A DNA stretch of 64,000 nt, from assembly GCA_964545855.1 (NCBI GenBank), contig CAZJHD010000001.1, positions 84,065-148,064 of the forward strand, given 5' to 3'. Under the pieces are notes generated by a model. It was not told where the DNA came from. It saw only the letters and a list, made by a program, of their open reading frames with translations, and searched no databases. The translations under genes and the position numbers were made by a program. This DNA comes from an uncultured Planctomycetales bacterium. Its GTDB lineage: Bacteria > Planctomycetota > UBA1135 > JACQFD01. Positions 446-63,920 of this stretch are shown here, piece by piece. Numbering within the stretch: the first letter of the stretch is position 1; every line of letters starts with the position of its first letter.

Positions 446-487
446 CAGCCCGCCAGGGGCGGCGCGCGCCGCTGCCCCGGTGCGTCG

Positions 488-1345: not shown

Positions 1346-1755
1346 GACAGGCGCCCGGCCCCGTCCCCGGCCCGGACTATCCGGCGGAGCGCGTCGCGCG
1401 CCGGCGCTCGCGGCGCGACGAGAGCCGCGTTGCCTCGCTCGTGAACCTCGCCGGCGTCGTCGCCGCCGCGATGCTCATGCTGAGCGCGCTGGCGCGCCTC
1501 GCGATCGTCGAGCATCCGATGGAGCCGGTCGTCGGCGATCCGCCGCTCCAGCTCGACCATTTCCTGCACCTCGACCCCATGGCCTGGGCGTCGATCGGAT
1601 GCCTCCTCCTCACGGCGACTCCCATCCTGCGGATGGTCGTGCTCGCCGTGACGTTCCTCGTGCGCGGACGCCATGGCTTCGCCCTCGCGGCGCTCCTGGT
1701 GGTGGCCTTCCTCGCCGCCGGGATCGTGACCGGCATGCGGATCGCGTCGACCTGA
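1342..1755 (+). CDS. DUF1634-like small membrane protein, the usual partner of DUF81 permeases
   Basis: An in-frame ATG lies inside long ORF 517..1755 and forms an ATGA overlap with the TauE stop. The product is 137 aa with hydrophobic helices (AGVVAAAMLMLSALARL, GCLLLTATPILRMVVLAVTFLV, ALAALLVVAFLAAGIV). The upstream part of that ORF is an out-of-frame reading of the TauE gene. Confidence 0.75.
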   Translation: MRQAPGPVPGPDYPAERVARRRSRRDESRVASLVNLAGVVAAAMLMLSALARLAIVEHPMEPVVGDPPLQLDHFLHLDPMAWASIGCLLLTATPILRMVVLAVTFLVRGRHGFALAALLVVAFLAAGIVTGMRIAST

Positions 1756-1761
1756 GGGGAC

Positions 1762-2721: not shown

Positions 2722-2733
2722 GGAGACTCCACT

Positions 2734-3411
2734 TCAGAGTTCGCGCAGCCGGACGTTGCGGAACTCGACGCGCGTGCCGTGGCCGAGGAAGCCGATGTGG
2801 CCGCGCGCGCGGGCGAGGCCCGGATGCTTCGCGAGGACTTGTGGGTCGCGCACGGCGTCCAGGTCGGCGTCGACGATCGTCGTGCCGTTCAGCACGACGG
2901 TGATGCGCCGGCCGCGTGCGGTGATCTCCTGCTCGTTCCACTCGCCGACGGGGCGCTGCGCGCCGCGGCGCGCGGCGACGACGCCGTAGATCGAGCCGTG
3001 GTACTGCCAGGGCCGGAGCGTCCGGTACTCGGAGCCCGAGTCGTCGAGCACCTGGATCTCCATGCCGGCGTAGGCCGCATCGCCCTCCAGCGGCGCGCGG
3101 ATGCCGATGCCGTTGTTCGCGTTCTCCGAGAGCCGGAACTCGAAGCGCAGGATGAAGTCTCCGTACTCGCGCGCGGTGAAGAGATTCCCTCCGTCGGCGG
3201 CGGTGCAGAAGAGGACCCCGTCGGCCACCTGGTAGCCGTGGCCGCGCCGATGCTCCTTGCCTCCCTGGGTCCCGTACACCCAGCCGTCGAGCGTGCGGCC
3301 GTCGAAGAGCGCGACGAAGCCCGCCTCGGGATCGGAGCCGCGCTCGGGGGCGGGCGAGCCGCAGCCGGCGGCGAGGGTGGCGGCGACGAGACCAGCGAGC
3401 GTCCGATGCAT
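2734..3411 (-). CDS. DUF1080 (3-keto-disaccharide hydrolase family) lipoprotein
   Basis: Lipobox signal [17 protein letters not shown]. It carries the family hallmarks [61 protein letters not shown] and [15 protein letters not shown]. Confidence 0.85.
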
Positions 3412-3469
3412 GACGCCATCGAACCGCGGGAACGGGCCGCCGGGAAGGGGCGGCCGGTAGGCTCTCCGG

Positions 3470-4609
3470 ATGGAACGTCCCGACGCGGAGGCTCCCGAGC
3501 CCGAGCACGTGCATGTGCACGGCTGCTGCGAGGACCGGCCGGGCGCGACGCACCTCGTCGTGCGCGCGCGGGATCTCCCCGGCCTGCGGCGCGCTCTCGC
3601 GCAGCGTCCCGACGACGGGCGCGGGCCGCGGGCGATCCTGGAGGCGGCGCGCGTCGGCTGGACCGAGGGGCTCGCGGTGCTTCTCGCGGCCGGCGCCGAT
3701 CCGAACGGTCTCTGGCGCGGCTACCGGCCGATGCACGCCCTGATCCAGGAGAAGATCGGCGAGGAGGGCGAAGGCTCCCTGCGGGAGCGGCTCGCCTGCC
3801 TCGACGCGCTCCTCGCGGCGGGCGCCGACCCCGACGCCCTCGGCGCCTTCCCTCCGGCCCGCGCGATCGTGATCGCGGCCTTCACGGGCGTCGGCGACTT
3901 CGTCGAGCGGCTGCGCGCGGGCGTGCGCGCGGACGACGTCTTCGCGGCCGCGGCGCTCGGCGACGCCAAGCGCGTGGCGCGGCTCGTCGCGAAGGACGCG
4001 AAGCTCGCGGCGGCCCGGGACGACGGCGGCCTCACGGCGCTCGCCTGCGCCGCCGGGTCGCGCGTCGGCCGTGACGATCCGAAGGCGGCGCGGGGGCTGC
4101 TCGCCTGCGCGTCGAAGCTCCTGGGCGCGGGCGCCGACGCGAACGCGCGCGTCCGCGGATTCGGCGACGAGGTGGACGTCGCGTACTTCGCGGCGAACGC
4201 CGGGAACGGTCCGATGCTGGATCTGCTGCTCGCGCACGGCGCCGACGCCACGGCGGCGCTGCCCTCGACGGCCTGGGCGGGCCACGCGGACCTCTCGGAG
4301 ATCGCGCTGCGCCACGGCGCGGACCCGGACGCCGCGACCCACGGCGATCGCCCGCTGCTGAACGACCTCGTGCGCTGGGGACAGGCGCAGCCGGCCGAGT
4401 GGCTCCTCGCGCACGGCGCCTCCCCGAATGTCGCCGACAAGCACGGCTGGACGGCGCTCCACCAGGCCGCGTCCCGCGGGAGCGTGCGCCTCGTCACGGC
4501 CTGCCTCGCTGCCGGCGCCGACCGGAAGGCCCGTGACGGGAAGCGCCGCACGGCCCTCGACGTGGCGCGCGAGCGCGGACGCGCGAAGGTCGTCGAGCTG
4601 CTGCGTTGA
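3470..4609 (+). CDS. Ankyrin-repeat protein
   Basis: 379 aa with repeated ankyrin signatures ([104 protein letters not shown]). Confidence 0.85.
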
Positions 4610-4621
4610 TGGAGATTCGCC

Positions 4622-4703
4622 GCGGAATGGGGTCAGACCCCTTTTTCGTCTCGCGCCGCGCGCGCGCGGCGCGAGACGGAAAAGGGGTCTGACCCCATTC
4701 CGC
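4622..4703. repeat. Palindromic intergenic element A (82 bp, two 41-nt arms with one T:G mismatch); terminator-like hairpin after the ankyrin gene
   Basis: The left arm gcggaatggggtcagacccctttttcgtctcgcgccgcgcg is directly followed by its reverse complement. The outer arms share GGAATGGGGTCAGACCC with the elements at 26252 and 36449. Confidence 0.85.
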
Positions 4704-4738
4704 TAGACTCCCGCGCCACCCCTTCGCGAGAACCCCGC

Positions 4739-6043
4739 TTGAGCGAACCCACGTCCCGTCCGGCGCTCCTGTTCCCGCGGCTCTCCGCGATGATGTTCCT
4801 CCAGTACGCCATCTGGGGGGCGTGGCTTCCGCTCTTCTTCCAGTTCCTCACGGACTACCGCCACATCGGTCCGGACGACGCGGGGCTCCTCTTCTCCTAC
4901 GGCGCGATCGGCGCCGTCGTGGCGCCCTTCGTGGCGGGGCAGATCGTCGACCGCTACATGGCGATCGAGAAGTTCGTCGGCGTGAGCCACCTGCTCGGCG
5001 CCGTCCTCGTCTGGCAGCTCGGGACGATCGACACCTACGGGGGGCTCGTCCTCTTCTCGGTGCTCTACTCGATCCTCTACGCGCCGACGATGCCGCTCAC
5101 GAACGCGCTCGCGTTCCACCACCTGCCGGACCGCGTGCGCGACTTCGGGAAGGTGCGCCTCTGGGGCACGGTGGGTTGGATCGCCGTCGGGATCGGCATG
5201 GGCCAGTGGCTGCTGCGCTACCACACGCCGTCGGCCGCCGAGTCGACGCCGGAGCTCATCCGTCAGGCGCAGCTCGCCGGCATGGTCGACGCGTTCCGCC
5301 TCTCGGCGATCCTCGGTGCGATCCTCGGCGTCTTCAGCTTCACGCTCCCGCACACGCCGCCGCGGCGCGGCTCGTCTCCCTTCGCTCCCGGCGAGGCGCT
5401 CCGAGCGATCCGCAAGCAGCCGCTCCTCACGCTCTTCTGCGTCTCGCTCCCCGTGAGCTGCGCGCACCAGTTCTACTTCGTGCACACGGCGGGCTTCCTC
5501 GCGTACCGGGAGATGGAGTCCGACTTCTTCAACCAGATCTTCGGCGTCGGCGGCGGCGGCCTCATGACGATCGGGCAGATCTCGGAGATCTTCTGCATCG
5601 CTGCCGTGCCCTTCGTCGCGCGGCGCTTCGCGCGGAAGACGCTGCTGATCGTGGGGCTCCTCGCCTACATCGCGCGCTTCGCGCTCTTCGCCTACGGCGA
5701 CTCCCAGGCGGCGATCCTCACCGGCGTCGCGCTCCACGGCCCCGTCTTCGCCTGCTTCATCTTCCTCGCCTTCATGATCGTCGACGAGGAGACGACGGCG
5801 GACGTGCGCGGGAGCGCCCAGGGTCTCTACAACCTCGTGGTCGTGGGGCTCGGGATCATCGTGGGCAACCTGATCGCCGGGAGGATCGGCCAGATGACGA
5901 AGCTCGAGGGCGCCCAGGGCTTCGACTACCGCACGCTCTTCGGGCTGCCGATGTGGGGCTGCGTCGCGTGCCTCGTGGCGATCGTCCTCTTCTATCCCGG
6001 CGGGAAGAGCCGCGCGCTGCAGGCGGCGGAGGCCGCCGCGTGA
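4739..6043 (+). CDS. MFS transporter, nucleoside:H+ symporter (NHS, NupG/XapB-like) family
   Basis: 434 aa and about 12 TM. The N-terminus LSAMMFLQYAIWGAWLPLFFQFL resembles the NupG/XapB signature. The ORF-track start is TTG 4739, and an internal ATG (MMFLQY) is an alternative. Confidence 0.8.
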   Translation: MSEPTSRPALLFPRLSAMMFLQYAIWGAWLPLFFQFLTDYRHIGPDDAGLLFSYGAIGAVVAPFVAGQIVDRYMAIEKFVGVSHLLGAVLVWQLGTIDTYGGLVLFSVLYSILYAPTMPLTNALAFHHLPDRVRDFGKVRLWGTVGWIAVGIGMGQWLLRYHTPSAAESTPELIRQAQLAGMVDAFRLSAILGAILGVFSFTLPHTPPRRGSSPFAPGEALRAIRKQPLLTLFCVSLPVSCAHQFYFVHTAGFLAYREMESDFFNQIFGVGGGGLMTIGQISEIFCIAAVPFVARRFARKTLLIVGLLAYIARFALFAYGDSQAAILTGVALHGPVFACFIFLAFMIVDEETTADVRGSAQGLYNLVVVGLGIIVGNLIAGRIGQMTKLEGAQGFDYRTLFGLPMWGCVACLVAIVLFYPGGKSRALQAAEAAA

Positions 6044-11890: not shown

Positions 11891-13615
11891 ATGCCGCGCC
11901 CCCGCACGTTCGCGCTTCTCGCCCTCGCATCGCTCGCGTCCTCGGCCGCGCTGGCTCCGTCCGTCCAAGCGCAGTTCCCGCCGATCGACTACTCCATCTC
12001 CTACGAGCCGCTCGCGGCCAACGAGCGCTGCGGCACCTCCTTCGCGCCGCTCGCCGACCTCGACGGGGACGGCGAGTGCGACGTCGCCGTGGGCTGCCCC
12101 GGCGCGAACGGCGACTCGGGCCGCGTCGCGATCCTCGACGGCGCCACGATGACGCAGCTCCACGAGATCACGCTGCCGGGCAACCCTGCGAACGCGGGCT
12201 TCGGCAGCTCGCTCGCCTTCGCGGGAGAGCCGGTGGGGCCCGGGAGCGTGCTCCTCCTCGTCGGCGCGCCGGGAATCGGAGTCGGCGGCACGGTCTACGT
12301 CCGTCTCGTGACCGCGACGGGCTCCGTCGATCTCGGGTCGGTCGTCTACGGCGAGGCGGGGGCGGGATGGGGCGACCAGCTCGTCGTCGGCGGCGACCAG
12401 AACGCGGACGGCGTCCCCGACTACGGCGCGATCGCTCCGCTCGCGAACTTCAGCGGCGTCGACTCGGGCTACCTCCAGATGTACGACGGGGCGACGGGCA
12501 ACCCCCTCCTGTTCATGTTCGGGAACCCTCTGGAAAGGCTCTCGCGGTGCGTGGCCACCATCGACGTGAACGAGGACGGTCGCGACGAATGCATCGCGTC
12601 GTTCCTCGGCTACCCGGGCGGGAACGGCCGCGGCGCCGTGTGGGCGTTCTCTCCGACGACGTTCACGTTCCTTCCGAATCCCGTTCTCGGCGCGAACCCC
12701 GGCGACCAGCTCGGAACGGGCCTCGCGGACGTCGGAGACGTCGACTGCAGCGGAGTGAGCGATCTCGGAATCGGCATTCCCGGCTGGGATCAGGGCGGGC
12801 TCACCGATCGCGGCAAAGTGGAGGTGCGGAGCGGGACCGACTTCACGAGCGTGCTCATCGAGGAGGTCGGCGTGCTGGAGGGAGACGAGCTCGGGCACGA
12901 CGTGACGAACTGCGGCGACATGGATGGAGACGGCTTCGACGACTTCTGCGCCACCGCGCCCGGCCACGAGGATCCGCCCGGCACGCCCGTGAACTACGCG
13001 GCGCTGTTCAACGGCCGGACGGGTGAGACGCTCTCCGTCGCGTTCAGCGGCCCGGCCATCTTCTCGAGCGGAATCAAGCTTCCCGGCTTCGCGAGCCCCG
13101 GCGACGCGATCCGCCGCTGCTACGCCCTCGACCCGGAGGACAGCACCGTGCAGCCGAACGGCGGCAGCATCGCCGTCGCGGAGCTCGCGCCGGAGGGCGT
13201 CGAGACCTTCGGCGCCGGCGCCGACGGTTGCGACGGCGCGCACACGATCTTCGTGAGCGACGCACCCCGCATCGGGAGCGTCGACTTTCGGATCCACTCG
13301 GCGCGCGCGCCGAAGCTGACGGTGCAGCTCCTCCTCGTCGCCGACGCGTCGAGCCCCGGGGGCACCGACCCCTTCGGTCTCGGCCTCGATCTCTTCGTCG
13401 ACCTGCTCGGCGCGACGGAGGTGCTCGCCTTCGACCTGCCCGTGAGCCCCTGCGGCCTCGCCGAGGTGCAGGCGCCGATCCCCAACGAGCCGCTGCTCGT
13501 CGGAAAGACCTACACGACGCAATCGATCTTCTTCTGGGCCGGTATCTGCCTCCCGACGCTCTACGGGCTCAGCTCCTCGGGAGGGATGAACCTCACGATC
13601 CAGCCGCCGAGCTGA
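11891..13615 (+). CDS. Secreted FG-GAP (integrin-alpha-like) repeat protein with conserved C-terminal two-Cys module
   Basis: Signal peptide MPRPRTFALLALASLASSAALAPSVQA. It has repeated FG...DxDGDG.xD...G.P motifs (DLDGDGECDVAVGCP, GDQNADGVPDY, IDVNEDGRDE, GDVDCSGVSDLGIG, GDMDGDGFDDF). The last ~141 aa are homologous to the C-termini of the genes ending at 16649 and 21763. Confidence 0.85.
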   Translation: MPRPRTFALLALASLASSAALAPSVQAQFPPIDYSISYEPLAANERCGTSFAPLADLDGDGECDVAVGCPGANGDSGRVAILDGATMTQLHEITLPGNPANAGFGSSLAFAGEPVGPGSVLLLVGAPGIGVGGTVYVRLVTATGSVDLGSVVYGEAGAGWGDQLVVGGDQNADGVPDYGAIAPLANFSGVDSGYLQMYDGATGNPLLFMFGNPLERLSRCVATIDVNEDGRDECIASFLGYPGGNGRGAVWAFSPTTFTFLPNPVLGANPGDQLGTGLADVGDVDCSGVSDLGIGIPGWDQGGLTDRGKVEVRSGTDFTSVLIEEVGVLEGDELGHDVTNCGDMDGDGFDDFCATAPGHEDPPGTPVNYAALFNGRTGETLSVAFSGPAIFSSGIKLPGFASPGDAIRRCYALDPEDSTVQPNGGSIAVAELAPEGVETFGAGADGCDGAHTIFVSDAPRIGSVDFRIHSARAPKLTVQLLLVADASSPGGTDPFGLGLDLFVDLLGATEVLAFDLPVSPCGLAEVQAPIPNEPLLVGKTYTTQSIFFWAGICLPTLYGLSSSGGMNLTIQPPS

Positions 13616-13697
13616 AAGGCGCGCGCGCCGCGCCCCGCGCGAGAAACGAACCGGGCGGAGCGGGGGTGAAGGAGGTGTCCTCCTCCACGAGCTCCCC

Positions 13698-16649
13698 ATG
13701 CATCGCTCGCACGCTCTGCTTCCGGCTGCTGTGCTCCTCCTCGCCTCGCTGGCGCCCGCCGCCCCGGCCCAGCAGGACCTCCTCACCCTGAACGGCGGTT
13801 CCTTCGGCGGTCAGTTCGGCTACGCCGTCGCGAACGCGGGCGACTGCGACGGCGACGGCCGCGACGACGTGGCCGTCGGCAGCCCCTTCGACGACACGGC
13901 CGCCGTCGACCAAGGGCGCGTGCGCTGCTACTCGGGCGCGACGGGAGCGCTCCTCTGGACGGCCGTGGGCGACGCGGCGGGCGACCAGCTGGGCCAGTCG
14001 ATCGCGACGGTCGGTGACGTGAACGGCGACGGGCGCTCCGATCTCGTCGTGGGCGCGCCCTACGCCGATCCGAACGGCGCCAACTCGGGGCGCGTGAAGA
14101 TCCTCTCGGGCGCGAACGGGAGCACGCTCCTCACGCTGAACGGCGTGGCGGCGGGCGACCGATTCGGATGGTCCGTCGCCTACGGAGGCGCGCCCTTCCT
14201 CGGGACGAAGCGGATCGTGGTCGGCGCGCCCTTCCGCGACACGGGCGGCGCCGACGCGGGGAGCGCCTACGTCTACACCGTGACGGGGACGCTCCTGAAG
14301 GAGTTCACGGGGGCGCAGGCGGGCGAGCACCGCGGGTGGAGCGTCGCCGGGGCGCTCGACGTGAACGGCGATCTCAGCCCCGACGTGATCGTCGGAGCAC
14401 CCGACTCCGACGTGATCGCGGCCGACAACGGGCGCGTCTACGTCTTCTCGGGAGCGAGCCCGTACCCGCAGCTCTACGAGCGGCTCGGCGCCGTCGGAGG
14501 AGACCGGTTCGGCTTCTCCGTGGCAGCCCTCGCGAACATCGACAACGACGGATTCGGCGACTTCGTCGTCGGCTCTCCGGGAGCCTCGAGCGGGAACGGG
14601 CGCGTGACGGTCCACTCGGGAGGGAACGCGGGGGCGCAGCTCACGAGCAAGAGCGGAGTGCCCGGCCAGAGCCTCGGCTGGTCCGTGGCGTCGCTCGGCG
14701 ACGTGAACCTCGACGGCCGCACCGATTGGATCGTCGGCGCGCCCGACGATCCGGCCGCCGGAGCCGTGGGCCGAGCGCTCGTCTACTCGGGGCTGACCCA
14801 CGCTCTGCTCACGACGCTCAGCGGCACGAACCCGAACGGTCGCTTCGGCGCCGCCGTCGGCGGCGGAGGCGACGTGAACGGAGACGGGAGGCCCGATCCG
14901 ATCGTCGGCTCCCCCGACGCGGCGATCCTCGGCCCGGAGCAGGGGAACGTCCGCGTCTTCTCGGGGAACGGATTCGGACAGCTCCTCGGGATCGACGGGC
15001 CGACGAACGGCGACCGCCTCGGCGGCGCGCTCTGCTCGATCGGCGACGTGAATGGCGACGGCCGAGCCGACTTCCTCGTGGGGTCGCCGCAGGCGGACCA
15101 CACCTTCTATGTCCTCCTCCAGCCGGTCACCCACGAGAACGCCGGCAGCGTGCGCTGCATCTCCGGCATCGACGGTTCGACGCTCTGGACGATCTGGGGC
15201 GATGGCGAGGGCGACGAACTCGGCGCATCGGTGGCGAGCCTCGGCTACGACTTCAACGTCGACGGGGTGGACGACTTCGTCGTGGGAGCGCCGCAGCGCC
15301 TCACCGCCAGCCCCGCCGGCGGCTACGCCCGTGTCTGCACGGGGCTGAACGGCGCGACGCTCGGCACGGTCGTCGAGGCCACCGCGTCGTCCGAGTTCGG
15401 CGCCGCCGTGGCGAACGCGGGGGATGTGACCGGAGACGGCCGGCCCGAGGCTCTCGTGGGCTCGCCTGGGTTCTCGGGCGGACGCGGGCGCATCGCGGTG
15501 ATGCTCGGTGGATTATTCGTCGAGGTCTCCATCGGGCCCCTGTCGATCGGCCAGCAGGCCGGCGAGCGGTTCGGGAGCTCGGTGGCAGCCCTCGGCGACG
15601 TGAACGGCGACGCCAAGTCGGACCTCCTCGTGGGCGCACCGTCGAACGACGCCGTCGGCGTCGACGCGGGCCGCGCCTACGCGATCTCGACGGGGGGCGC
15701 CGGCTCGCTGCTGTTCACGCTGAGCGGGACGAACGCGGGCGACCTCTTCGGGTCGTCGGTCTGCTCGCTCGGCGACTTCACGGGCGACGACGTGACCGAC
15801 GTCCTCGCCGTCGGAGCCCCCGGCGCCGACTACGCGCCTCTCGGGCTCACCAACTGCGGATCCGTGCGGAGCTTCTTCGTGGTGTCGCTCAGCGACTACT
15901 GGGTCGTCTTCGGCCAGGGCTCTCACGACCTCCTCGGATCGACGATCGCGAACGTTGGCGACTACTCGAACGACGGCTTCGACGACCTGATCGCGGGAGC
16001 TCCCGAGAACTTCTTCTTCTCCCTCGGGACCGGCTATGCGCAGGTCGTGAGCGGCTGGTACGGCGTCGTCTCCTACACCTTCCCGGGGAGCACGCTCGGA
16101 GAAGGCTTCGGCCTCGCCGTGGCGGCGGGCGGCGACGTGGACGCGAACGGCACGCTCGACGCCCTCGTGGGAAGCCCGTTCGCGAGCCCGAGCGGCCCAT
16201 CGTCGGGGCGCGCGAAGGCGATCTCGCTCCAGCCGGCGGGCGTCATCTACTACGGGACCGGCAGCGCGGGCTGCGCGGGAGACCAGAGGCTGCGCAACAG
16301 CATGGCGCCGCGGATCGGGACCTACTGGTTCACCTGGGGCGTGAACAACGCGCCGCCGAGCTCGCTCGGCCTGCTGCTCGCCTCCGACTCGCCGGACTTC
16401 GTCGGGTCGGACCCCTTCGGGATCGGCGTGCCGCTCCTCGTCGACCTGATCTTCGCGACGGAGGTCTACGGCCTCGACATCAACTCGACGGTCGAGGGCT
16501 TCGGGATCGCAGTCACGCCGATCGCGAACAACCCGATCCTCGTCGGCAAGCACTACTACGGTCAGACCCTCTGGGCCTGGGGGAGCTGCCCGCTGCCGCC
16601 CTACGGCTTGAGCACGAGCCACGCGGCAAACATCCAGATCCAGCCGTAG
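13698..16649 (+). CDS. Secreted FG-GAP repeat protein (983 aa, about 14 repeats) with the same C-terminal module
   Basis: Signal peptide MHRSHALLPAAVLLLASLAPAAPA. It has many FG-GAP units (FGYAVANAGDCDGDGRDDVAVGSP, LGQSIATVGDVNGDGRSDLVVGAP, and so on). The C-terminal 138 aa are homologous to 13190-13612 and 21338-21760. Confidence 0.85.
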   Translation: MHRSHALLPAAVLLLASLAPAAPAQQDLLTLNGGSFGGQFGYAVANAGDCDGDGRDDVAVGSPFDDTAAVDQGRVRCYSGATGALLWTAVGDAAGDQLGQSIATVGDVNGDGRSDLVVGAPYADPNGANSGRVKILSGANGSTLLTLNGVAAGDRFGWSVAYGGAPFLGTKRIVVGAPFRDTGGADAGSAYVYTVTGTLLKEFTGAQAGEHRGWSVAGALDVNGDLSPDVIVGAPDSDVIAADNGRVYVFSGASPYPQLYERLGAVGGDRFGFSVAALANIDNDGFGDFVVGSPGASSGNGRVTVHSGGNAGAQLTSKSGVPGQSLGWSVASLGDVNLDGRTDWIVGAPDDPAAGAVGRALVYSGLTHALLTTLSGTNPNGRFGAAVGGGGDVNGDGRPDPIVGSPDAAILGPEQGNVRVFSGNGFGQLLGIDGPTNGDRLGGALCSIGDVNGDGRADFLVGSPQADHTFYVLLQPVTHENAGSVRCISGIDGSTLWTIWGDGEGDELGASVASLGYDFNVDGVDDFVVGAPQRLTASPAGGYARVCTGLNGATLGTVVEATASSEFGAAVANAGDVTGDGRPEALVGSPGFSGGRGRIAVMLGGLFVEVSIGPLSIGQQAGERFGSSVAALGDVNGDAKSDLLVGAPSNDAVGVDAGRAYAISTGGAGSLLFTLSGTNAGDLFGSSVCSLGDFTGDDVTDVLAVGAPGADYAPLGLTNCGSVRSFFVVSLSDYWVVFGQGSHDLLGSTIANVGDYSNDGFDDLIAGAPENFFFSLGTGYAQVVSGWYGVVSYTFPGSTLGEGFGLAVAAGGDVDANGTLDALVGSPFASPSGPSSGRAKAISLQPAGVIYYGTGSAGCAGDQRLRNSMAPRIGTYWFTWGVNNAPPSSLGLLLASDSPDFVGSDPFGIGVPLLVDLIFATEVYGLDINSTVEGFGIAVTPIANNPILVGKHYYGQTLWAWGSCPLPPYGLSTSHAANIQIQP

Positions 16650-16655
16650 GGATAG

Positions 16656-16726
16656 TGGCCCCGAATCATTCACTTCCCCGGAGGTCCGCCGCGTGCGCAC
16701 CCCGGGGCGTGAATGATTCGGGGCCA
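16656..16726. repeat. Inverted repeat / terminator-like hairpin (18-bp perfect arms, 35-nt GC-rich spacer with an internal CCCCGG/CCGGGG pairing)
   Basis: tggccccgaatcattcac (16656-16673) is the exact reverse complement of gtgaatgattcggggcca (16709-16726). The element starts 7 nt after the TAG of the FG-GAP gene. Confidence 0.75.
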
Positions 16727-16901
16727 GTTTCCGTCGCCCGTCCTCGGTTCGGCGGCGGGCGGCTCGAGTCCCCGCTTGCGCCGCTCTCGGATGCAGGGGT
16801 AGCGTGCTCCGGTCCTGGACGCTTCCCGCCCGCTTCGTGCGGGGCGATCCGGGAGCCGGCGCCCGCGAGGCGCCCGAGGGTGTGATGAGTCACTGGAGCG
16901 C

Positions 16902-19168: not shown

Positions 19169-21763
19169 ATGATCCCTTCGACGCAACACCTTCCTTCCCC
19201 TCGTCGCGACGCAGGATCTTTGCGATGCCCTCGGCTGCTCCTCACGGCCGGAGCCGTGGCGTTCGCCGCGGCTCCGGCCGCCTTCCCCCAGGGCGGCAAC
19301 ACCGCGGCGCGCGAGCTGCCCGCCTTCGCCCGACAGCCCGTCCGCTTCGTCGAGCGGCCGCTCGCCGCGCCCGGCGCGCCGCGCTTCGAGGTGGCGGCGC
19401 CAGGAGGCGCTGCGGCGCTGCGGTCTGGCGCGATCGCTCTCGCGATCCCGGGCGATCGCGAGGGATCCTTCGAGCGCGTCGTCCTCTCCTTCGAGGGCGC
19501 CGATCCCGCAGCGCGCCTCGAGGGCGAGGAGCCCGACGGAGCGCGGCATCACGATCTCCGGGGCGGACGCCAAGAAGAGTGGACGCCTCGGCGGCCGAGC
19601 TTCCGGGTCGTCGGGTGCGCGGGGCTCTACCCCGGAGTCGATCTGGTCCTGCGCGAGGAGCTGGGCCAGCTCGAATACGACCTCCTCCTCGCTCCGGGCG
19701 CCGAGCCGAGCGCGATCGTCGTCCGGGTCGACGGCGCCGACTCCATCGCCCGCGATCGGGATGGCTCGTTGTCGATCCGAGTCGGCGGCCGGACGATTCG
19801 GCAGTCTCCGCCGAAGACCTTCGCCCTCGCCGCGGGCGGCGCGCGACACGAGATCCCGTCGGCGGTCCGGATCGTCGACTCCACGCGGTTCGGGTTCGAG
19901 CTGGGCTTGCGCGATCCGGAGAGCGCCCTCGTCATCGACCCCGGAATCGTCTTCGCCACCTACGTCGGGGGTGCCTCCCTCGACGACATCTACGACGTGG
20001 CCGTCGGGAGCGACGGCGCCGCCTACCTGACGGGGCGAATGGGGAGCGGCTTCACGACGACTCCGGGCGCCTTCCAGCCGACCTACCATGGCGGGCCGCT
20101 CTTCCAGAGCGATGCCTTCGCTCTGAAGCTCCAGCCGAACGGCGCAAGCGCCACCTACGCCACCTATCTCGGAGGGAGCGGCGACGACATCGGCTACGGC
20201 ATCGGCCTCTCCCCGCAGGCCGAGGCCATCGTCTACGCGGTGACCGGCTCTTTCGACCTGCCGCTCACACCGAACCCCTACAGCGTCCAGCCCGACGGAG
20301 GCTACGTGGCGAAGCTCTCGCCCGACGGCTCGGCCCTCGTCTTCGCGACGACCTTCGTCGGCCACACGTGGTCGACCGCATCCATGGAAGTGGACGCGCA
20401 GGGCTTTCCGTACGTCGCGGGACTCGTCGCGCCTCCCCTCAACTTCGCGACCCCCGGCGCCTTCCAGACGGTGCCCACTGGAGGCAACGCCGACGGCTTC
20501 GTCGCCAAGATGAACCTCGACGGCTCGGCCCTCGTCTACGCCACGTACTTGAGCGCCTACCCGGGAGCCTGGATCTACGACATCGCCCTCGACGCGCAGA
20601 AGGCGGTCTACGCCGTGGGGGAGACCTCCTCGACGACGTTCCCGGTGACGCCCGGCGCATTCCAGACGGTGAACGCGCCGACGAGCATTCTCGGGGGAAG
20701 CGTCGGCTTCGTGGCGAAGCTCTCCCCCCAGGGAGACTCGCTCCACTACTGCACCTACCTCGGCGGCACGATGCAGATCGATCGCGCGAATACGGTCTCG
20801 GTCGATGCGCAGGGGTCTGCGGTCGTGGGCGGCTTCACCAGCTCCGCAGACTTCCCCGTCACGGGCGGAACTCTCGACCCCGTCTGGTCCCAGCCTCAGC
20901 GCACCTTTGTCGCGCGGTTGAGTCCTGCGGGGGACGCGCTGATCTACTCGACCTTCATCCCACCGCCAACCAACCTCTCACAGTACGTCGGAGTGGGGTC
21001 GCTCCATGCCGAACTGGAGGGCGCAATCCTTACAGGAGTCTCGACCGTGGGATTGCCCTACACGCCCGATGCATTCGACACGACCGTCGTGGGCTATCAA
21101 GGCGATGCATTCGTCGCGCGCCTGAGCCCCCTCGGCACGAGTCTCACGTTCGCGAGCTATCTCGGAGGGTCGGGCGCGGACTTCGCGCGTTCCGTTGCCG
21201 TCGACAGCACGGGCGCGGTCTACGCCGCTGGATTCACCGACTCCAAGAACTTCCCCGTGAACGGCCACGCCTACGACAAGGTCCTCGAAGGGACCTCGTG
21301 GGACGGCTTCCTCGCGAAGATCACGGTCCCGAAGCTCCCCTTCGGCATCGCCTCCTACGGCACCGGTACGCCCGGCTGCCTCGGGCCGCAGCGCCTCTGG
21401 GTCGAGACGCCGCTCCACCTCGGGCAGAAGGCCTTCGTCTTCGGCTGCGACGCGGCGCCGATCGGCGGCTCGGGCGGAGTGCTGCTGAGCGACCTGCAGG
21501 ACCTCGCCGGCTCCGATCCCTTCTTCCTCGGCATCGCGCTCCACGTCGACCTCTTCTCGCCGAACGTCGCGAGCGTGCCGCTCTTCGCGCCGCCGCACTA
21601 CGCGGGCATGGCGGCGAACACGGTCGTGATCCCGAGCGACTCCGCCCTCCTCGGGAAGACCTTCTACGCGCAGGCCCTCTGGCTCTGGCCGCAGGGCGCC
21701 TGCACTCCGTCGCTCTACGGCCTCAGCACCTCGAACGGCCTCGCGATGACGGTGATCCCGTGA
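19169..21763 (+). CDS. Secreted SBBP beta-propeller repeat protein (paralogue) with the C-terminal two-Cys module
   Basis: ATG at codon 155 of ORF 18707..21763, 17 nt after the previous stop. The signal-like N-terminus is MIPSTQHLPSPRRDAGSLRCPRLLLTAGAVAFAAAPAAFPQ. It has a DUF7948-like region and many SBBP units (ATYVGGASLDDIYDVAV, ATYLGGSGDDIGYGIGL, CTYLGGTMQIDRANTVSV, ASYLGGSGADFARSVAV). Its C-terminal 141 aa are homologous to the FG-GAP C-termini. Confidence 0.85.
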   Translation: MIPSTQHLPSPRRDAGSLRCPRLLLTAGAVAFAAAPAAFPQGGNTAARELPAFARQPVRFVERPLAAPGAPRFEVAAPGGAAALRSGAIALAIPGDREGSFERVVLSFEGADPAARLEGEEPDGARHHDLRGGRQEEWTPRRPSFRVVGCAGLYPGVDLVLREELGQLEYDLLLAPGAEPSAIVVRVDGADSIARDRDGSLSIRVGGRTIRQSPPKTFALAAGGARHEIPSAVRIVDSTRFGFELGLRDPESALVIDPGIVFATYVGGASLDDIYDVAVGSDGAAYLTGRMGSGFTTTPGAFQPTYHGGPLFQSDAFALKLQPNGASATYATYLGGSGDDIGYGIGLSPQAEAIVYAVTGSFDLPLTPNPYSVQPDGGYVAKLSPDGSALVFATTFVGHTWSTASMEVDAQGFPYVAGLVAPPLNFATPGAFQTVPTGGNADGFVAKMNLDGSALVYATYLSAYPGAWIYDIALDAQKAVYAVGETSSTTFPVTPGAFQTVNAPTSILGGSVGFVAKLSPQGDSLHYCTYLGGTMQIDRANTVSVDAQGSAVVGGFTSSADFPVTGGTLDPVWSQPQRTFVARLSPAGDALIYSTFIPPPTNLSQYVGVGSLHAELEGAILTGVSTVGLPYTPDAFDTTVVGYQGDAFVARLSPLGTSLTFASYLGGSGADFARSVAVDSTGAVYAAGFTDSKNFPVNGHAYDKVLEGTSWDGFLAKITVPKLPFGIASYGTGTPGCLGPQRLWVETPLHLGQKAFVFGCDAAPIGGSGGVLLSDLQDLAGSDPFFLGIALHVDLFSPNVASVPLFAPPHYAGMAANTVVIPSDSALLGKTFYAQALWLWPQGACTPSLYGLSTSNGLAMTVIP

Positions 21764-24782: not shown

Positions 24783-26227
24783 TCGCCCTCGCGCTCTCGG
24801 TCCTCGCCGCCACGATGCAGGGCGCATCGGCGTCGGAGGCCGACTTCTACCGCATCGTCACGGTCGGCGTGCCGAAGGAGATCGTCCTCGAGGTGAGCGG
24901 TCTCGCGTTCCTGCCGGACGGGAAGCTCCTGGCGGCGACGCGCCGCGGCGACGTGTGGACGCTCGACCGGCCGCTCGCGCCGGAGGGGAAGGGGATCGCC
25001 TTCGGGAAGTTCACGGACGGGCTCCAGGAGCCGCTCGGCCTCCTCCTGCATGACGGGTGGATCTGGTGCGCGCAGCGCGGCGAGCTCTCGCGCATGCGCG
25101 ACGTCGACGGCGACGGTCGCGTCGACGAGCTCGAGACCGTCTGCGACGACTGGCGCATCAGCGGGAACTACCACGAGTACACGTTCGGTCCGGTCCTCGG
25201 CGGCGACGGCGCGCTCTGGATGACGACGAACAAGCCCTTCGGCGACGAGCCCTTCGGCCGCGTCGATTGGCGCGGCTGGGCGATCTCCGTCGACGCCGGC
25301 GGGCGCATGACGCCGCGCGCCTGCGGGCTGCGCTCGCCGTCGGGGATCGGCACGAGCCCCGAAGGCGTCGTCTTCTACTCCGACAACCAGGGCGAGTGGT
25401 GCGGCACGAGCAAGCTCGCGGCGCTCGAGGACGGCGACTTCCACGGCCACCCGCACGGTCTCTTCTCGGCGCGGCGCCCCGAGTGGCGCTTCGGGCATCC
25501 GGGCGATCCGCCCGACGGGAAGCCGATCCCCGAGGTGGCCCGCGCGATGCCGTCTCTGAGGCTGCCGGCGGTGTGGTTCCCCTACGACGAGATGGGGCGC
25601 TCCGCGTCGGGCTTCGTCTGGGACACGACGGGCGGGACGTTCGGCCCCTTCGCGGGGCAGGTCTTCATCGGCGACCAGTACTCCTCCGAGGTGATGCGCG
25701 TCTCGCTGGAGAAGGTGCGCGGCCGCTGGCAGGGCGCGTGCCATCCCTTCGTGCGCGGGCTCGCCTGCGGCATCGTGCGGCTCGCCTTCGCGCCCGACGG
25801 GTCCCTCTTCGCCGGGCTCACGAACCGCGGCTGGCCCTCCGTGGGGCCGAAGGGCGAGGGGCTCCAGCGGATCCTGTGGACGGGGAAGACGCCCTTCGAG
25901 GTGCACACGATGAGCGCGCGCGCCGACGGCTTCGAGCTGCGGTTCACGGAGCCCGTCGACGCGGCGTCGGCGGCGGACGCCGCGAGCTACGCCATGGAGA
26001 GCTGGACCTACCGGCTCCACAGCGACTACGGCAGCCCGAAGATCGACGAAGCGAAGCCCGCGATCGTCGCGGCGGAGGTCTCCGGCGACGGTGCGACGGT
26101 GCACCTGCGCGTCGACGGTCTGCGCGAGGGCTACGTCCACGCGCTGCGGCTGCCGGGCGTCCGTTCGCGCGCCGGCGCGCCGCTGCTGCATCCGGTCGCC
26201 TACTACACGCTGAACGCGATTCCCTGA
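24779..26227 (+). CDS. Secreted beta-propeller protein related to glucose/sorbosone-dehydrogenase-like 'putative membrane-bound dehydrogenase' domains of PVC bacteria
   Basis: These are the last 482 codons of ORF 21839..26227. GTG 24779 overlaps the cytochrome stop (GTGA). The signal is (M)IALALSVLAATMQGASA. Motifs: GLAFLPDGKLLAATRRGDVW, LGLLLHDGWIW, RDVDGDGRVDE, YHEYTFGPV, GLRSPSGIG.SPEG..FYSDNQGEW. Confidence 0.75.
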   Translation: MIALALSVLAATMQGASASEADFYRIVTVGVPKEIVLEVSGLAFLPDGKLLAATRRGDVWTLDRPLAPEGKGIAFGKFTDGLQEPLGLLLHDGWIWCAQRGELSRMRDVDGDGRVDELETVCDDWRISGNYHEYTFGPVLGGDGALWMTTNKPFGDEPFGRVDWRGWAISVDAGGRMTPRACGLRSPSGIGTSPEGVVFYSDNQGEWCGTSKLAALEDGDFHGHPHGLFSARRPEWRFGHPGDPPDGKPIPEVARAMPSLRLPAVWFPYDEMGRSASGFVWDTTGGTFGPFAGQVFIGDQYSSEVMRVSLEKVRGRWQGACHPFVRGLACGIVRLAFAPDGSLFAGLTNRGWPSVGPKGEGLQRILWTGKTPFEVHTMSARADGFELRFTEPVDAASAADAASYAMESWTYRLHSDYGSPKIDEAKPAIVAAEVSGDGATVHLRVDGLREGYVHALRLPGVRSRAGAPLLHPVAYYTLNAIP

Positions 26228-26251: not shown

Positions 26252-26354
26252 CCCGGGAATGGGGTCAGACCCATCTCTCCCGCCCCCTTCTCGCGGCGCG
26301 CGCCGCGCGCCGCGGGGATGGGGCGGGAGAGATGGGTCTGACCCCATTCCCGGG
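26252..26354. repeat. Palindromic intergenic element B (103 bp; 35-bp perfect arms plus a largely self-complementary GC core) between convergent genes
   Basis: cccgggaatggggtcagacccatctctcccgcccc (26252-26286) is the exact reverse complement of 26320-26354. It shares GGAATGGGGTCAGACCC with element A. Confidence 0.85.
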
Positions 26355-26371: not shown

Positions 26372-27778
26372 TCAGCGCCGCGCGGTCGCCGCGCGCGGAG
26401 TGTCGAGCGGGGCGCCGAGGACTCTCTCCAGGGCGAACCGCGATCGCGCGGACTCCCGAAGGGTTTCGATCCCGGCGCTCCGCGCCTCGAGGAGAGTGCG
26501 GCGCGACTGCAGCATCGAGAGCAGGATCGTGTCGCCGAGCTCGAACGACCGCTCGGCCAGGGCGGCGCCGCGCTCCGCGTTCGGAATCAGCTCCTCGTCG
26601 GCGAAGCGCGCCGCGCGCGCGGCGATCGACGCCCGATCGGCGGCGGCGCGCACCTCCTGGCCGGCGTCCGCTTCCAGGGCCTCGAGCTCCTTCCGCGCTT
26701 CCGCGAGGAGGAACGCAGCGCGGCTCACCTGCGCCTGGTTCTGATCGAAGAGCGGAATCGCGACGGTGGCACCCGGGCCGAGGAGGAGCGCCGCCGTGCT
26801 CCCGCCCTCGGGCCGCTCGACGGAGAGACCCGCGTCCGTGCGCGGAAAGAGGCGCGCGCGCTCGCGGTCGACCTGCGCCTCCGCGGCGGCGACGCTGCGC
26901 GCCGCGGCGCGGAGATCGGGACGGTCTCGCAGGCACCTCGCGACGAGCGCCTCGGAATCGAGCTCGACCGGAGCCGGCGCGACGAGCGGGTCGGTCAGCG
27001 CGACGTCGATGGGATCTCCGCGGAGGGAGAGCAGCGCGCCGAGGGCGCGCCGCGCGTCGGACTCCTCGCGCTCCGCCCGGAGTTCGGCTCGCTCCGCCTC
27101 GAGGACGACGCTCGTCGCGAGGCTCTCGTCCGTCGTCGTCGCGACGCCCGCCTCCACCCGACGGCGCACGCCTTCCAGCGACCGCCGCGCGAGGTCGGCG
27201 CTCGCGCGCGCGATGGAGCGCGCCTCGCGCGCGGCGACGCTCTCGACGTAGGCGTCCTTCGTCCGGAACACGAGCTCACCCGCGAAGCGCGAGAGCTCGA
27301 GGATCCGCTGCTCCAGTCCCGCGCGCGCGACCTGCTCGCGCGACGAGAGGCTCCAGAGGTCGGAGACGCTCGCCACCAGATCCGCCGTCCATCGAACGCG
27401 GCCGCCCGTGTCCGGGAAGAGGAAAGCGAGGCTGAGGCTCGGATTCGCGAGGAGCCCCGACTGGACGAGCTCCGACCGCGCGACGCCGAGACCCATGAAG
27501 CCCGCCTGGAGCCGGCGGTTGTTGAGGAGCGCGAGGCGCGCCGCCTCCTCGAGACCGAGGCCGTCGGCGAGCATCGTGCGGATCTCCTCGTCCGAGAGGA
27601 CGGGTCTTTCCGGGTCGTGGACGGCAGTCGCGCCGGTCGTCGCGCGGATCTCCTCCGTGGCCCGCTGGTAGTCGGGCCGAGGATCGACCGACGCGCATCC
27701 GCCGAGCGCCAGAAGGAGGACGCAGCTCGGAGAGCGCCACCGAGAGACTTCGCTACGCATGGGCCACCTCCATTCCAT
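26372..27778 (-). CDS. czcC: Outer-membrane efflux protein, TolC/CzcC family lipoprotein
   Basis: 468 aa. The lipobox is SCVLLLALGGC. It has TolC-type repeated coiled-coil halves (LLNNRRLQA..., R...LE..R..V..G...). It is the last gene of the CzcB-CzcA-CzcC operon. ATG 27760 is an alternative start, and either start overlaps the czcA 3' end. Confidence 0.85.
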   Translation of the reverse strand: MEWRWPMRSEVSRWRSPSCVLLLALGGCASVDPRPDYQRATEEIRATTGATAVHDPERPVLSDEEIRTMLADGLGLEEAARLALLNNRRLQAGFMGLGVARSELVQSGLLANPSLSLAFLFPDTGGRVRWTADLVASVSDLWSLSSREQVARAGLEQRILELSRFAGELVFRTKDAYVESVAAREARSIARASADLARRSLEGVRRRVEAGVATTTDESLATSVVLEAERAELRAEREESDARRALGALLSLRGDPIDVALTDPLVAPAPVELDSEALVARCLRDRPDLRAAARSVAAAEAQVDRERARLFPRTDAGLSVERPEGGSTAALLLGPGATVAIPLFDQNQAQVSRAAFLLAEARKELEALEADAGQEVRAAADRASIAARAARFADEELIPNAERGAALAERSFELGDTILLSMLQSRRTLLEARSAGIETLRESARSRFALERVLGAPLDTPRAATARR

Positions 27779-34699: not shown

Positions 34700-35491
34700 T
34701 CAGGATCCGGGCTCGCAGACGATCCGGAAACCGACGAATCCGTTGTCGACGAGCCACCAGGGGCTCTTCGGGATCTGGGGGTCGCTCGCGTTCCAGGCGC
34801 GCGACTCGCGCTCGCGCGCGCGCGGGTGCACGTCGGCCGGAGCGTCGAGGTAGGAGCCGCCGCGCACGACGTGCGTTCCGTCGGGCGCGACGCACCACTC
34901 GGCGGCGTTCCCCAGCATGTCGTGGAGACCGAGCGCGTTCCCGCGCTTCGTGGCGACGGCGTGCGTCGTGCCGCCGCTGTTCCCCGCGTGCCATGCGGCC
35001 TCGTCGAGCGGCGCCCCGGCGTCGGGACCGCAGGCCCGCTCCCACTCGGCCTCCGTCGGCAGCCGGTAGCGACGTCCCGTCTTCGAGGAGAGCCACGCGC
35101 AGAAGGCGTGCGCGTTCTTCGCCGACAGGCCGATCGCCGGGAAGCCGGCGTGGCCGAAGCCGCGATCGGGCGGGATGTAGGGGCGGCTCGGACGCGTCAC
35201 TCCGTCGGCGTCGTCGGGCCGGTCCGGATCGGCGGCGTCCATGCGGTAGACGAAGACGTCGAAGAGATCGAAGGGGATCTCCGTGCGGCTCATCCAGAAG
35301 GCGCCGCCTCCCGCGCCCGCCGGGACGGGACGCATCTCGAGACGCGAGGTCGTTCCGGGGATCGACTCCACGAAGGGAGCGAGCGCGCCGTGACCGGACT
35401 CCGTGGGGCGCGTCGCCGGGCCCGGGCCCGAAGCGCAGGCGCCGAGCGACAGGAGCAGGGCGAGTGCGGTACGGTCGCGCCCGATCGGCAT
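34700..35491 (-). CDS. Formylglycine-generating-enzyme (SUMF1/FGE-sulfatase domain) family lipoprotein
   Basis: The ATG at codon 39 of ORF 34700..35605 gives the lipobox signal MPIGRDRTALALLLSLGAC. Motifs: FWMSRTEI, RLPTEAEWE.AC, GLHDMLGNAAEW and VRGGSY. ATG 35605 is the alternative start. Confidence 0.8.
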   Translation of the reverse strand: MPIGRDRTALALLLSLGACASGPGPATRPTESGHGALAPFVESIPGTTSRLEMRPVPAGAGGGAFWMSRTEIPFDLFDVFVYRMDAADPDRPDDADGVTRPSRPYIPPDRGFGHAGFPAIGLSAKNAHAFCAWLSSKTGRRYRLPTEAEWERACGPDAGAPLDEAAWHAGNSGGTTHAVATKRGNALGLHDMLGNAAEWCVAPDGTHVVRGGSYLDAPADVHPRARERESRAWNASDPQIPKSPWWLVDNGFVGFRIVCEPGS

Positions 35492-35525
35492 GGACGGATT
35501 CTGTCGGATCGCACCAAGGGCCGCC

Positions 35526-36467
35526 ATGGCGGCGACGATGGCGCTGCTCGCGGCCTGCGCGTCCGCGTCCGCGCCGCATCGATTCGAGTTCCAGCGCGTC
35601 GCCATGGGCGTCGACGCGCGGATCGTGCTCTACGCGGAGGATGGAGAGCGCGCCCGCGACGCCGCCGAGGCCGCCTTCGACCGCATCGCCGCCGTCGAGG
35701 ACGCGCTCAGCGACTGGCGTCCGGCGAGCGAGCTCTCGCGCCTCGGCGACGGCGCCGGCGGGGACGCGACGCCCGTCGGACCCGATCTGCTCGACGCGCT
35801 GCGGCGCGCGCGAGAGATCGCGGAGGCCTCGGACGGCGCCTTCGATCCGACGGTGGGTCCGGTGATCGCGCTCTGGCGCGCGTCGCGGAGGACGGGCGCG
35901 CTCGCCGAGGAGCACGCGCGCGCGGTGGCGCGAGACCTCGTCGGCTGGCGGCGCCTCGAGCTCGATGGCGGCGCCGGCACCGCGCGGCTCGCCACGGCGG
36001 GGATGCGCCTCGACCTCGGCGGGATCGGCAAGGGGTTCGCCGCCGACCGCGCCGTGGAGACGCTGCGGGCGCGCGGCGCGCGCCGATGTCTCGTGTCGCT
36101 GGCGGGGGACTTCGTGGCGGGAGATCCGCCGCCCGACCGCGACGCGTGGATCGTCGCGCTCGGACCCGGGTCGCCGGAGCCTGGCCGCCGCGTGCGACTC
36201 GCGCGCGCCGCCGTCTCGACGTCGGGCACCGCCGAGCAGTGGGTCGAGATCGACGGCGTCCGCTGGGCGCATCTCGTCGATCCGCGCACGGGGCTCGGTC
36301 TCCGCGAGGCCGTGTCGGCGACGGTCGTGGCGGCGGACGGAGCGACGGCGGACGCCCTCGCGACGGCCTTCTGCGTCGCGACGCGCGAGCAGGCGGCGGC
36401 ACTCCGGGCCGTGTTCCCGGAGGCGTGGGTGCTCGTCGGGCGGCAGCGCCCGGGAAACGGGGTCTGA
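35526..36467 (+). CDS. apbE: FAD:protein FMN transferase (ApbE family) lipoprotein
   Basis: The start at MAATMALLAAC (lipobox) lies inside ORF 35403..36467. Motifs: MGVDARIVLYA, SELSRL, GAFDPTVGP, LDLGGIGKGFAADRA, VSLAGD, STSG and HLVDPRTG. The stop TGA lies inside palindromic element C. Confidence 0.85.
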   Translation: MAATMALLAACASASAPHRFEFQRVAMGVDARIVLYAEDGERARDAAEAAFDRIAAVEDALSDWRPASELSRLGDGAGGDATPVGPDLLDALRRAREIAEASDGAFDPTVGPVIALWRASRRTGALAEEHARAVARDLVGWRRLELDGGAGTARLATAGMRLDLGGIGKGFAADRAVETLRARGARRCLVSLAGDFVAGDPPPDRDAWIVALGPGSPEPGRRVRLARAAVSTSGTAEQWVEIDGVRWAHLVDPRTGLGLREAVSATVVAADGATADALATAFCVATREQAAALRAVFPEAWVLVGRQRPGNGV

Positions 36468-36480
36468 CCCCTTTCCCGGG
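36449..36480. repeat. Palindromic element C (32-bp minimal copy: CCCGGGAAACGGGGTCTGACCCCTTTCCCGGG)
   Basis: It shares the CCCGGGAA..GGGGTC(A/T)GACCCC arm sequence with element B. It lies between the convergent apbE and PHP-hydrolase genes, and the apbE TGA (36465-36467) is the centre of the core. Confidence 0.75.
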
Positions 36481-36489
36481 GCCGCGTCG

Positions 36490-63741: not shown

Positions 63742-63920
63742 GCCACGACCCGCGCGGCAGCTCCCGCCGCGCGCCGAGTCCCCGAGCGCCGGAGGCCGCG
63801 GGCCCCGTGCGGAACCTGCCGCACGGGGCCCGTGGCGCATTCGGGCGGCACGCGCCGCGCAAGAGTCCTCGTCCAGGGGCTCGGACGACTTGCGGCTCGG
63901 GCTGGTAGTCTCGCGCCGCC

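Follow-up and report, generated by a model that had tools for sequence, protein, structure and literature searches.

The window, that is, the whole 64-kb stretch of DNA analyzed here, comes from a Planctomycetota-like MAG, has a G+C content of about 72% and encodes proteins whose next-best homologs are just 50-63% identical. The genes, which were placed by third-position GC and Pfam matches, include those for 3-keto-disaccharide hydrolase, cytochrome c-PA14 and DUF7133 proteins; this gene repertoire and the homologs that carry organism names indicate a Planctomycetota origin. GC skew tracks the gene strand, being slightly negative up to about 24 kb, where the genes are on the plus strand, and positive from 26 to 62 kb, where most are on the minus strand; the cumulative GC-skew minimum is near 22-24 kb. 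Three related hairpin-forming elements, denoted A, B and C, are found in this window, all three at the 3' ends of genes (Table 1). Element A separates two plus-strand genes, for an ankyrin-repeat protein and a nucleoside:H+ symporter, and element B is bordered by a DUF7133-type gene and, converging on it, a gene for an outer-membrane efflux (OEP) protein. As had been predicted, both are close to stop codons: A starts 12-13 nt past the upstream stop, with the symporter gene beginning 35 nt past the element, and B starts 24-25 nt past its upstream stop, with the stop codon of the OEP gene 17 nt beyond the element. Element C is located between the convergent ApbE gene and a 672-aa ORF.

Table 1. 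Elements A, B and C, their component units and other features of the window (positions are those of the window)
Feature	Position	Strand	Description
Hairpin	455..480	.	unique, GC-rich, without a U-tract, at a gene end
Ankyrin-repeat gene	3470..4609	+	stop codon at 4607..4609
Element A	4622..4703	.	82-bp palindrome, F...R dimer of a forward and a reverse unit
A left unit	4624..4646	+	GGAAT, core GGGGTCAGACCCC (4629-4641) and TTTTT; GGGGTCAGA forward
A center	4647..4678	.	GC-alternating palindrome CGTCTCGCGCCGCGCGCGCGCGGCGCGAGACG; its center TCTCGCGSCGCGCGC is also in B
A right unit	4679..4701	-	plus-strand core GGGGTCTGACCCC (4684-4696), then ATTCC; minus strand reads GGGGTCAGA
Nucleoside:H+ symporter gene	4739..6043	+	
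Two large adjacent genes	11891..16649		diverged DNA repeat modules
Gene preceding the unique palindrome	13698..16649		
Unique palindrome	16650..16732	.	83 nt, near-perfect, arms GGCCCCGAATCATTCAC...
Hairpin	19245..19280	.	unique, GC-rich, without a U-tract, at a gene end
DUF7133-type gene	ends at 26227		stop codon at 26225..26227
Element B	26252..26354	.	103-bp palindrome, F...R dimer
B left unit	26256..26273	+	GGAAT and GGGGTCAGACCCA; core with one mismatch
B right unit	26333..26350	-	plus strand TGGGTCTGACCCC and ATTCC; minus strand reads GGGGTCAGA
OEP gene	26372..27778	-	stop codon at 26372..26374
ApbE gene	35403..36467	+	
Element C	36449..36481	-	single complete unit CCCGGGAAAC-GGGGTCTGACCCC-TTTCCCGGGG; minus strand reads GGGGTCAGA
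ApbE TGA stop	36465..36467	+	sits in the center of the C core
672-aa ORF	36490..38508	-	
Hairpin	63795..63836	.	unique, GC-rich, without a U-tract, at a gene end

Elements A and B were described in the original prediction as long palindromes, and this description holds in its particulars. The 42-nt arms of A are 98% complementary, and those of B, 51 nt long, are 94% complementary and pair without a mismatch over the outer 35 bp; GGAATGGGGTCAGACCC is present in both arms of each element; both centers are of the alternating-GC type; and the core, GGGGTC[A/T]GACCCC, is itself a mini-palindrome of 13 bp with the half-sites GGGGTC and GACCCC. The 'MGSDP' pseudo-ORFs that had been noted on A and B are a mere reading of ATG GGG TCA GAC CCC. 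The forward and reverse units are separated by 42 bp in A and by 59 bp in B; within single arms there is a degenerate stem only, and the matching ATTCC comes after the second core. Besides A and B, the window contains a third, short copy, C, that had been overlooked; the stem of C, with 14 nt inside, has 8 pairs without interruption, or 12 when folded as RNA. Thus, A, B and C count as multi-copy extragenic palindromes, three in 64 kb, with A and B being inverted doublets.

A chance origin of these repeats is excluded: GGGGTCAGA has five exact sites in the 64-kb window, all of them within A, B and C, against an expectation of 0.57, and there are eight matches to the 17-mer GGAATGGGGTCWGACCC with up to three mismatches against 0.19 expected, a number that was reached in none of 100 shuffles of the sequence. 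A and B are identical in 17-20 outer bases and in the center of the alternating-GC tract, and their inner arms differ by one indel that is mirrored in both arms. The symmetric indel gives no sign of recent copying and indicates that each palindrome is kept symmetrical; the symmetry could come from fold-back copying, arm-to-arm conversion or selection for pairing. No match was obtained when the whole window was searched against Rfam 15 at the gathering score, and a permissive Rfam search with A and with a motif-rich locus of Parapusillimonas (L087; see below) returned generic hairpin matches of the miRNA-precursor type, below threshold only. A full-text search of the available literature with the 13-mer, 11-mers and 10-mers found no relevant paper, the matches being, judging by title, primer or vector sequences.

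Given that A, B and C adjoin stop codons, with B and C between convergent genes, they could be purely local terminators or mRNA-stabilizing 3' hairpins that evolved in place, their shared sequence being convergent. The RNA hairpins are predicted to be extremely stable (-92.7 kcal/mol, z = -13.5, for A; -122.1 kcal/mol, z = -13.5, for B; -36.9 kcal/mol, z = -3.9, for C), directly past the inner 5-bp hairpin of A there is a T5 run on the plus strand and a T4 run on the minus strand, and GC-rich hairpins lacking a U-tract are likewise found at the ends of many other genes of the window. However, the small hairpin of the left unit of A, which with its T5 is terminator-like in appearance, is the sole hairpin with a T-run among A, B and C, the full hairpins of which lack a U-tract; convergence does not account for the identical 17-20-mers in A and B; and, as the original prediction had stressed, the sequence conservation of the outer arms exceeds the needs of a terminator. 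Local evolution of these hairpins as terminators is therefore unlikely as the origin of the family; a terminator role as such is compatible with the RAYT-derived origin considered below, and the two can coexist.

At the ends of several genes of the window, there are GC-rich hairpins that are unique and lack a U-tract (Table 1), suggesting that the source genome ordinarily marks its 3' ends by U-less hairpins. In addition, a unique 83-nt near-perfect palindrome directly follows the stop codon of a large gene; it is unrelated to the GGGGTCAGA family and has no second copy in the window. The two large adjacent genes in this part of the window carry diverged DNA repeat modules, about nine in number, each 44-71 nt long and 165-540 nt or more apart, that encode FG-GAP/VCBS-like repeats of the form 'GDVNGDG..D..VG'.

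The effect of such elements on the adjacent genes can be seen in the case of C. The TGA stop codon of the ApbE gene is the center of the C core, so that the last residues of the protein, ...PGNGV*, are encoded by C; this tail has no counterpart in ApbE homologs, which end a few residues earlier or differently. In other genomes, too, the core or the TGA at its center serves as the end of an ORF, in particular, in two of the transposase genes described below (...CNGV* at about 1105-1112 in L060 and ...GSDPH* at 1654-1673 in L026). The three ORFs that end in the core imply that insertions remodel the 3' ends of genes.

To survey the core beyond the window, the 17-mer was scanned over 185,579 species genomes (596 Gb), yielding at least 107 loci. 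By our own calculation, about 140 chance matches to a 17-mer are expected in 596 Gb, so that single-copy loci among the 107 carry no weight. Two or more exact GGGGTC[AT]GACCCC cores within 8 kb are present in 42 of the 107 listed loci, the chance of one extra copy being about 2e-4 per locus. These multi-core loci come from at least nine phyla, among them Acidobacteriota, Pseudomonadota (Alpha-, Beta- and Gammaproteobacteria), Actinomycetota, Bacillota, Desulfobacterota, Myxococcota, Gemmatimonadota, Planctomycetota and Omnitrophota, and such a distribution of the same 13-mer is left unexplained by terminators that evolved locally. Among the listed motif loci, the commonest layout is the F-R pair with a spacer of 27-61 nt, as in A and B. 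In the low-GC loci, where ORFs are unambiguous, 24 of the 28 cores are extragenic although ORFs cover 71% of the bases. A unit that is near-identical to C, CCCGGGAATGGGGTCAGACCCCGTTCCCGG, was found on two contigs of another Planctomycetota MAG and, together with the third copy in the window, bears out the prediction that A and B belong to a family.

The arrangement of the cores differs among the loci, and the densest of these contain up to 12-13 cores per 8 kb, in tight clusters and dimers. In Parapusillimonas sp. JC17 (L087, positions 300-7300; complete chromosome), there are 12 exact cores in 8 kb, arranged as tight forward-reverse doublets with spacers of 4-6 nt (GGGGTCAGACCCC-ATGC-GGGGTCTGACCCC). 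An alphaproteobacterial MAG (L013, positions 700-4050) carries 13 copies of GGGGTCTGACCCC, all oriented alike, spread over about 3.3 kb of DNA that is low in complexity and apparently non-coding, an array-like arrangement unlike the dimers of the other loci. In two loci of the Planctomycetota MAG Zod_Metabat.792 (L051 and L054), the unit is part of a larger, composite repeat (about 160 bp) that contains CACCCGCACCCGCAC tracts, and a second, direct, degenerate unit, GGCGTCAGACCCC, is found about 45 nt downstream. An assembly artifact was ruled out because the motif is present in isolate genomes (the complete chromosome of L087 as well as L098, L026 and L079), and a CRISPR-like array was ruled out for L013 and L052, which show no regular repeat-spacer structure.

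The core was found to be associated with transposase genes. In Alkalihalobacterium elongatum (L026), the ORF located between two cores contains the HUH and catalytic-tyrosine motifs, and a tblastn search with this protein detected homologs in Clostridium moutaii (L079), in the acidobacterial loci L028 and L044, and in a betaproteobacterial locus (L060). Altogether, a transposase gene with a core on both sides is present in 5 of the 107 listed motif-selected loci; from the gene frequencies given by Quentin et al. 2018 (PMC6006769), we estimate that a random genomic sample of 764 kb would contain about 0.05 such genes. All five proteins score above the Pfam Y1_Tnp gathering threshold, and the best NCBIfam match of all five is NF047646, REP-associated tyrosine transposase (one of them above the cut-off). 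In L028 and L060, the transposase gene is adjoined by the exact 17-mer of the window. Among the listed motif-selected loci, the Y1 transposase is the only gene that recurs beside the motif. The protein motifs NH[VI]H and YI[HE][LS]NPV, together with the frequent DnaA-C-like tail, assign these transposases to subclass 2.1 of TnpA-Y1, as delineated in PMC6006769, which is the same as the Group 1 RAYT of PMC5581495.

The original prediction called for a search for a RAYT-like gene elsewhere in the genome; none was found within the 64-kb window: a tblastn search with the five RAYTs detected no Y1 transposase gene (best E value, 0.38). In a RAYT profile search of a protein collection, the best 120 matches of thousands included none with a Planctomycetota name and none assignable to the source genome. 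Among 2.9 million viral contigs of IMG/VR, there are five RAYT relatives only (L188-L192), several of these at contig ends; hence, phages are no obvious carrier of these genes.

The association between the motif and the transposases was also analyzed in an independent sample of 80 metagenome loci (L108-L187) that were chosen solely by homology to the five transposases. Within 350 bp upstream of the gene, GGGGTCAGA occurs in the forward orientation in 40 of 76 loci and in the reverse orientation in 4 of 76; downstream of the gene, the complement TCTGACCCC is present in 31 of 73 loci and the forward form in 3 of 73; both the upstream GGGGTCAGA and the downstream complement are found in 26 of 69. 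This polar placement around transposase genes is again left unexplained by locally evolved terminators. Almost all of the best inverted repeats around the genes contain GGGGTCAGA or a near variant, such as ATCAATGGGGTCAGACTCGATTGAT, and the commonest repeat flanking the subclass 2.1 RAYT genes in the 80 loci is ATCAAT-GGGGTCAGACTCG-ATTGAT. The core variants beside subclass 2.1 genes include ..ACCCC, ..ACTCG and ..AGTCG. A contiguous stem of at least 4 bp that abuts GGGG is present in 44% of the 91 distinct repeats, compared to 15% (maximum, 22%) with permuted flanks, and in 33 of the 40 stem-bearing repeats, the stem encloses exactly 13 nt. The stem sequences vary from locus to locus (ATCAAT/ATTGAT, TTCAA/TTGAA, CAGTTC/GAACTG and others) and yet pair, a covariation that argues in favor of a hairpin. 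The units of the window, ..GGAAT-13 nt-ATTCC.., show the same stem-plus-13-nt architecture, C being complete, with the 8-bp stem closing 14 nt.

These observations bear on the possibility that A, B and C are operator sites, that is, double-stranded palindromes to which a dimeric DNA-binding protein of the host, for example a nucleoid protein or a regulator, would bind, with no relation to transposition. The 13-bp palindromic core with its two half-sites and the conservation in excess of the pairing requirement are what might be expected of an operator. However, all copies in the window are at the 3' ends of genes and none is in a promoter region, the motif forms tight clusters and dimers in other genomes, the sole recurrent neighbor is the Y1 transposase gene, and many of the transposase-flanking versions of the motif (for example, GGGGTCAGACTCG) are non-palindromic yet retain the stem around it. 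Such an operator function thus appears very unlikely.

The inverted repeats around a short spacer are also reminiscent of MITEs of an unrelated DDE-type transposon, for example, one with a Tn3-like end (GGGGTCTGAC...), in which case the link to RAYTs would be coincidental; the ends of the Tn3 family also begin with GGGG. However, direct reading of the sequence revealed no direct repeat flanking A, B or C, that is, no target-site duplication; the motif runs on as ...ACCCC, unlike the Tn3 repeat; and no DDE transposase was seen beside the motif, in contrast to the strong and polar association with RAYTs. Tn3-type ends (GGGGTCTGACGCTCAGTGG...) were accordingly ruled out by the different continuation and the lack of target-site duplication, and an origin of A, B and C from an unrelated DDE-type transposon is extremely unlikely.

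Comparison with the known systems indicates that the closest counterparts of A, B and C are the repeats of Group 1 RAYTs. As described by Di Nocera et al. 2013 (PMC3733652), who called the genes TIRYT and their units TIRtrons, many of the terminal inverted repeats flanking TIRYT genes share the motif GGGGWSAS, and these repeats form moderately abundant families of singles, dimers or clusters. The TIRYTs correspond to the Group 1 RAYTs of Bertels et al. 2017 (PMC5581495) and to the TnpA-Y1 subclass 2.1 of Quentin et al. 2018 (PMC6006769), who report that no REP-like sequences were found beside subclass 2.1 genes. The stem-plus-13-nt result suggests that a weak but conserved hairpin next to these genes was overlooked. 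We found no description of this architecture in the available text of the papers on TIRYT, Group 1 RAYT and subclass 2.1. Every unit of A, B and C contains GGGGTCAG, which fits GGGGWSAS, and like the TIRYT repeats, the A/B/C family has this motif at the outer end of the repeat, consists of extragenic singles, dimers and clusters in moderate copy number, and shows a wide, patchy spread across phyla. It differs from the TIRYT repeats in that the 13-nt segment is self-complementary (GGGGTCAGACCCC), that A and B are long palindromes of 82 and 103 bp, and that the host is a Planctomycetota-like MAG, with no transposase within 64 kb. Taken together, these comparisons make it likely that A, B and C belong with the GGGGWSAS repeats of Group 1 RAYT/TIRYT transposases. 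They would then add to a type of element that has already been described, with palindromes of unusual length.

Similarly to REPINs and REP/BIMEs, which are associated with Group 2/3 RAYTs, such as those of E. coli (TnpA-REP) and Pseudomonas, A and B consist of two inverted units that form one long hairpin, are extragenic, mostly next to gene 3' ends, and are part of a family in which a cognate Y1 transposase gene is flanked by the repeats. The REPINs and the REP/BIMEs of Group 2/3 RAYTs were reportedly described by Bertels and Rainey in 2011 and by Nunvar et al. in 2010. The transposase group is different, however, the A/B/C core is cross-phylum rather than lineage-specific, and neither GTAG nor GTGG is present at the base of A, B or C; lacking this GT[AG]G head, the three are not canonical REP/BIMEs. 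With this caveat, the original suggestion of a REP/BIME- or MITE-like, protein-recognized element is supported by the core flanking RAYT-type Y1 genes in Bacillota, Acidobacteriota and Betaproteobacteria and by the polar GGGGTCAGA inverted repeats at the transposase-selected loci. With the subterminal hairpins of the IS200/IS605 elements (IS608, ISDra2), the family shares a single-stranded DNA hairpin of the kind recognized by a Y1 HUH enzyme and the lack of target-site duplication; the differences are that no transposase gene is present between the ends of A and B and that the transposases of the family have the motif Y...NP instead of Y...Q. The Rho-independent 'I-shaped' terminators of high-GC bacteria are likewise GC-rich hairpins that follow stop codons, and in the window B and C sit between convergent genes; in contrast to these terminators, A, B and C form a repeated family with conserved non-structural bases, and the full hairpin lacks a U-tract.

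Thus, A, B and C are probably non-autonomous REP/REPIN-like (MITE-like) elements that derive from the terminal hairpin repeats flanking Group 1 RAYT genes. In the scenario that we propose, the basic unit would consist of a 13-nt segment, starting with GGGGTCAGA, and the short stem (..GGAAT / ATTCC..) that closes it, with the 13-mer of the source lineage, GGGGTCAGACCCC, being palindromic in its own right. Element C would represent one complete unit, and A and B would each represent two units, forward and then reverse, equivalent to a 'TIRtron' minus the gene; it is this polarity, that of a transposase unit without the gene, that accounts for the resemblance of A and B to REPINs or MITEs. The related Y1 HUH enzymes IS608 TnpA and E. 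coli TnpA-REP are known to bind hairpins in single-stranded DNA and to cut beside them and, by analogy, a Group 1 RAYT that is, or once was, present in the source genome may have spread the units of A, B and C. The retention of copies at gene 3' ends would reflect the slight damage that they cause in such places. In transcripts, the very stable hairpins probably have a second effect, as barriers at the 3' end that terminate transcription or stabilize the mRNA; a secondary role of this kind is plausible given that A, B and C lie at gene 3' ends in the same manner as the unique GC-rich hairpins that follow many genes of the window.

A broader generalization, which we advance tentatively and with some doubt, is that the GGGGTCAGA hairpin, with its short stem closing 13 nt, might be what all Group 1 RAYTs recognize, in which case these transposases would drive one REP/REPIN-like superfamily. 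In contrast to the GTAG REPs, which are specific to lineages, its members in no fewer than nine phyla would have a single core in common, and A, B and C would be members retained as 3'-end hairpins. Such a superfamily would contrast with the descriptions of Group 1 RAYTs, in PMC3733652 and PMC6006769, as flanked by terminal inverted repeats only or as devoid of REP-like sequences.

If the derivation proposed here is valid, the puzzling perfect palindromes of 80-100 bp in a Planctomycetota genome would be explained as derivatives of transposase ends, and the mis-annotation of such palindromes as 'MGSDP...' ORFs or as novel RNAs could be avoided. Group 1 is the largest and the least understood group of RAYTs, and its members gain a concrete proposed substrate, namely, a 9-nt motif inside a 13-nt segment that is closed by a short stem; because the motif is conserved across phyla, how all of Group 1 recognizes and cleaves its DNA could be defined by one biochemical experiment. 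Should the elements terminate or stabilize transcripts as well, mobile DNA would have been co-opted repeatedly at gene ends.
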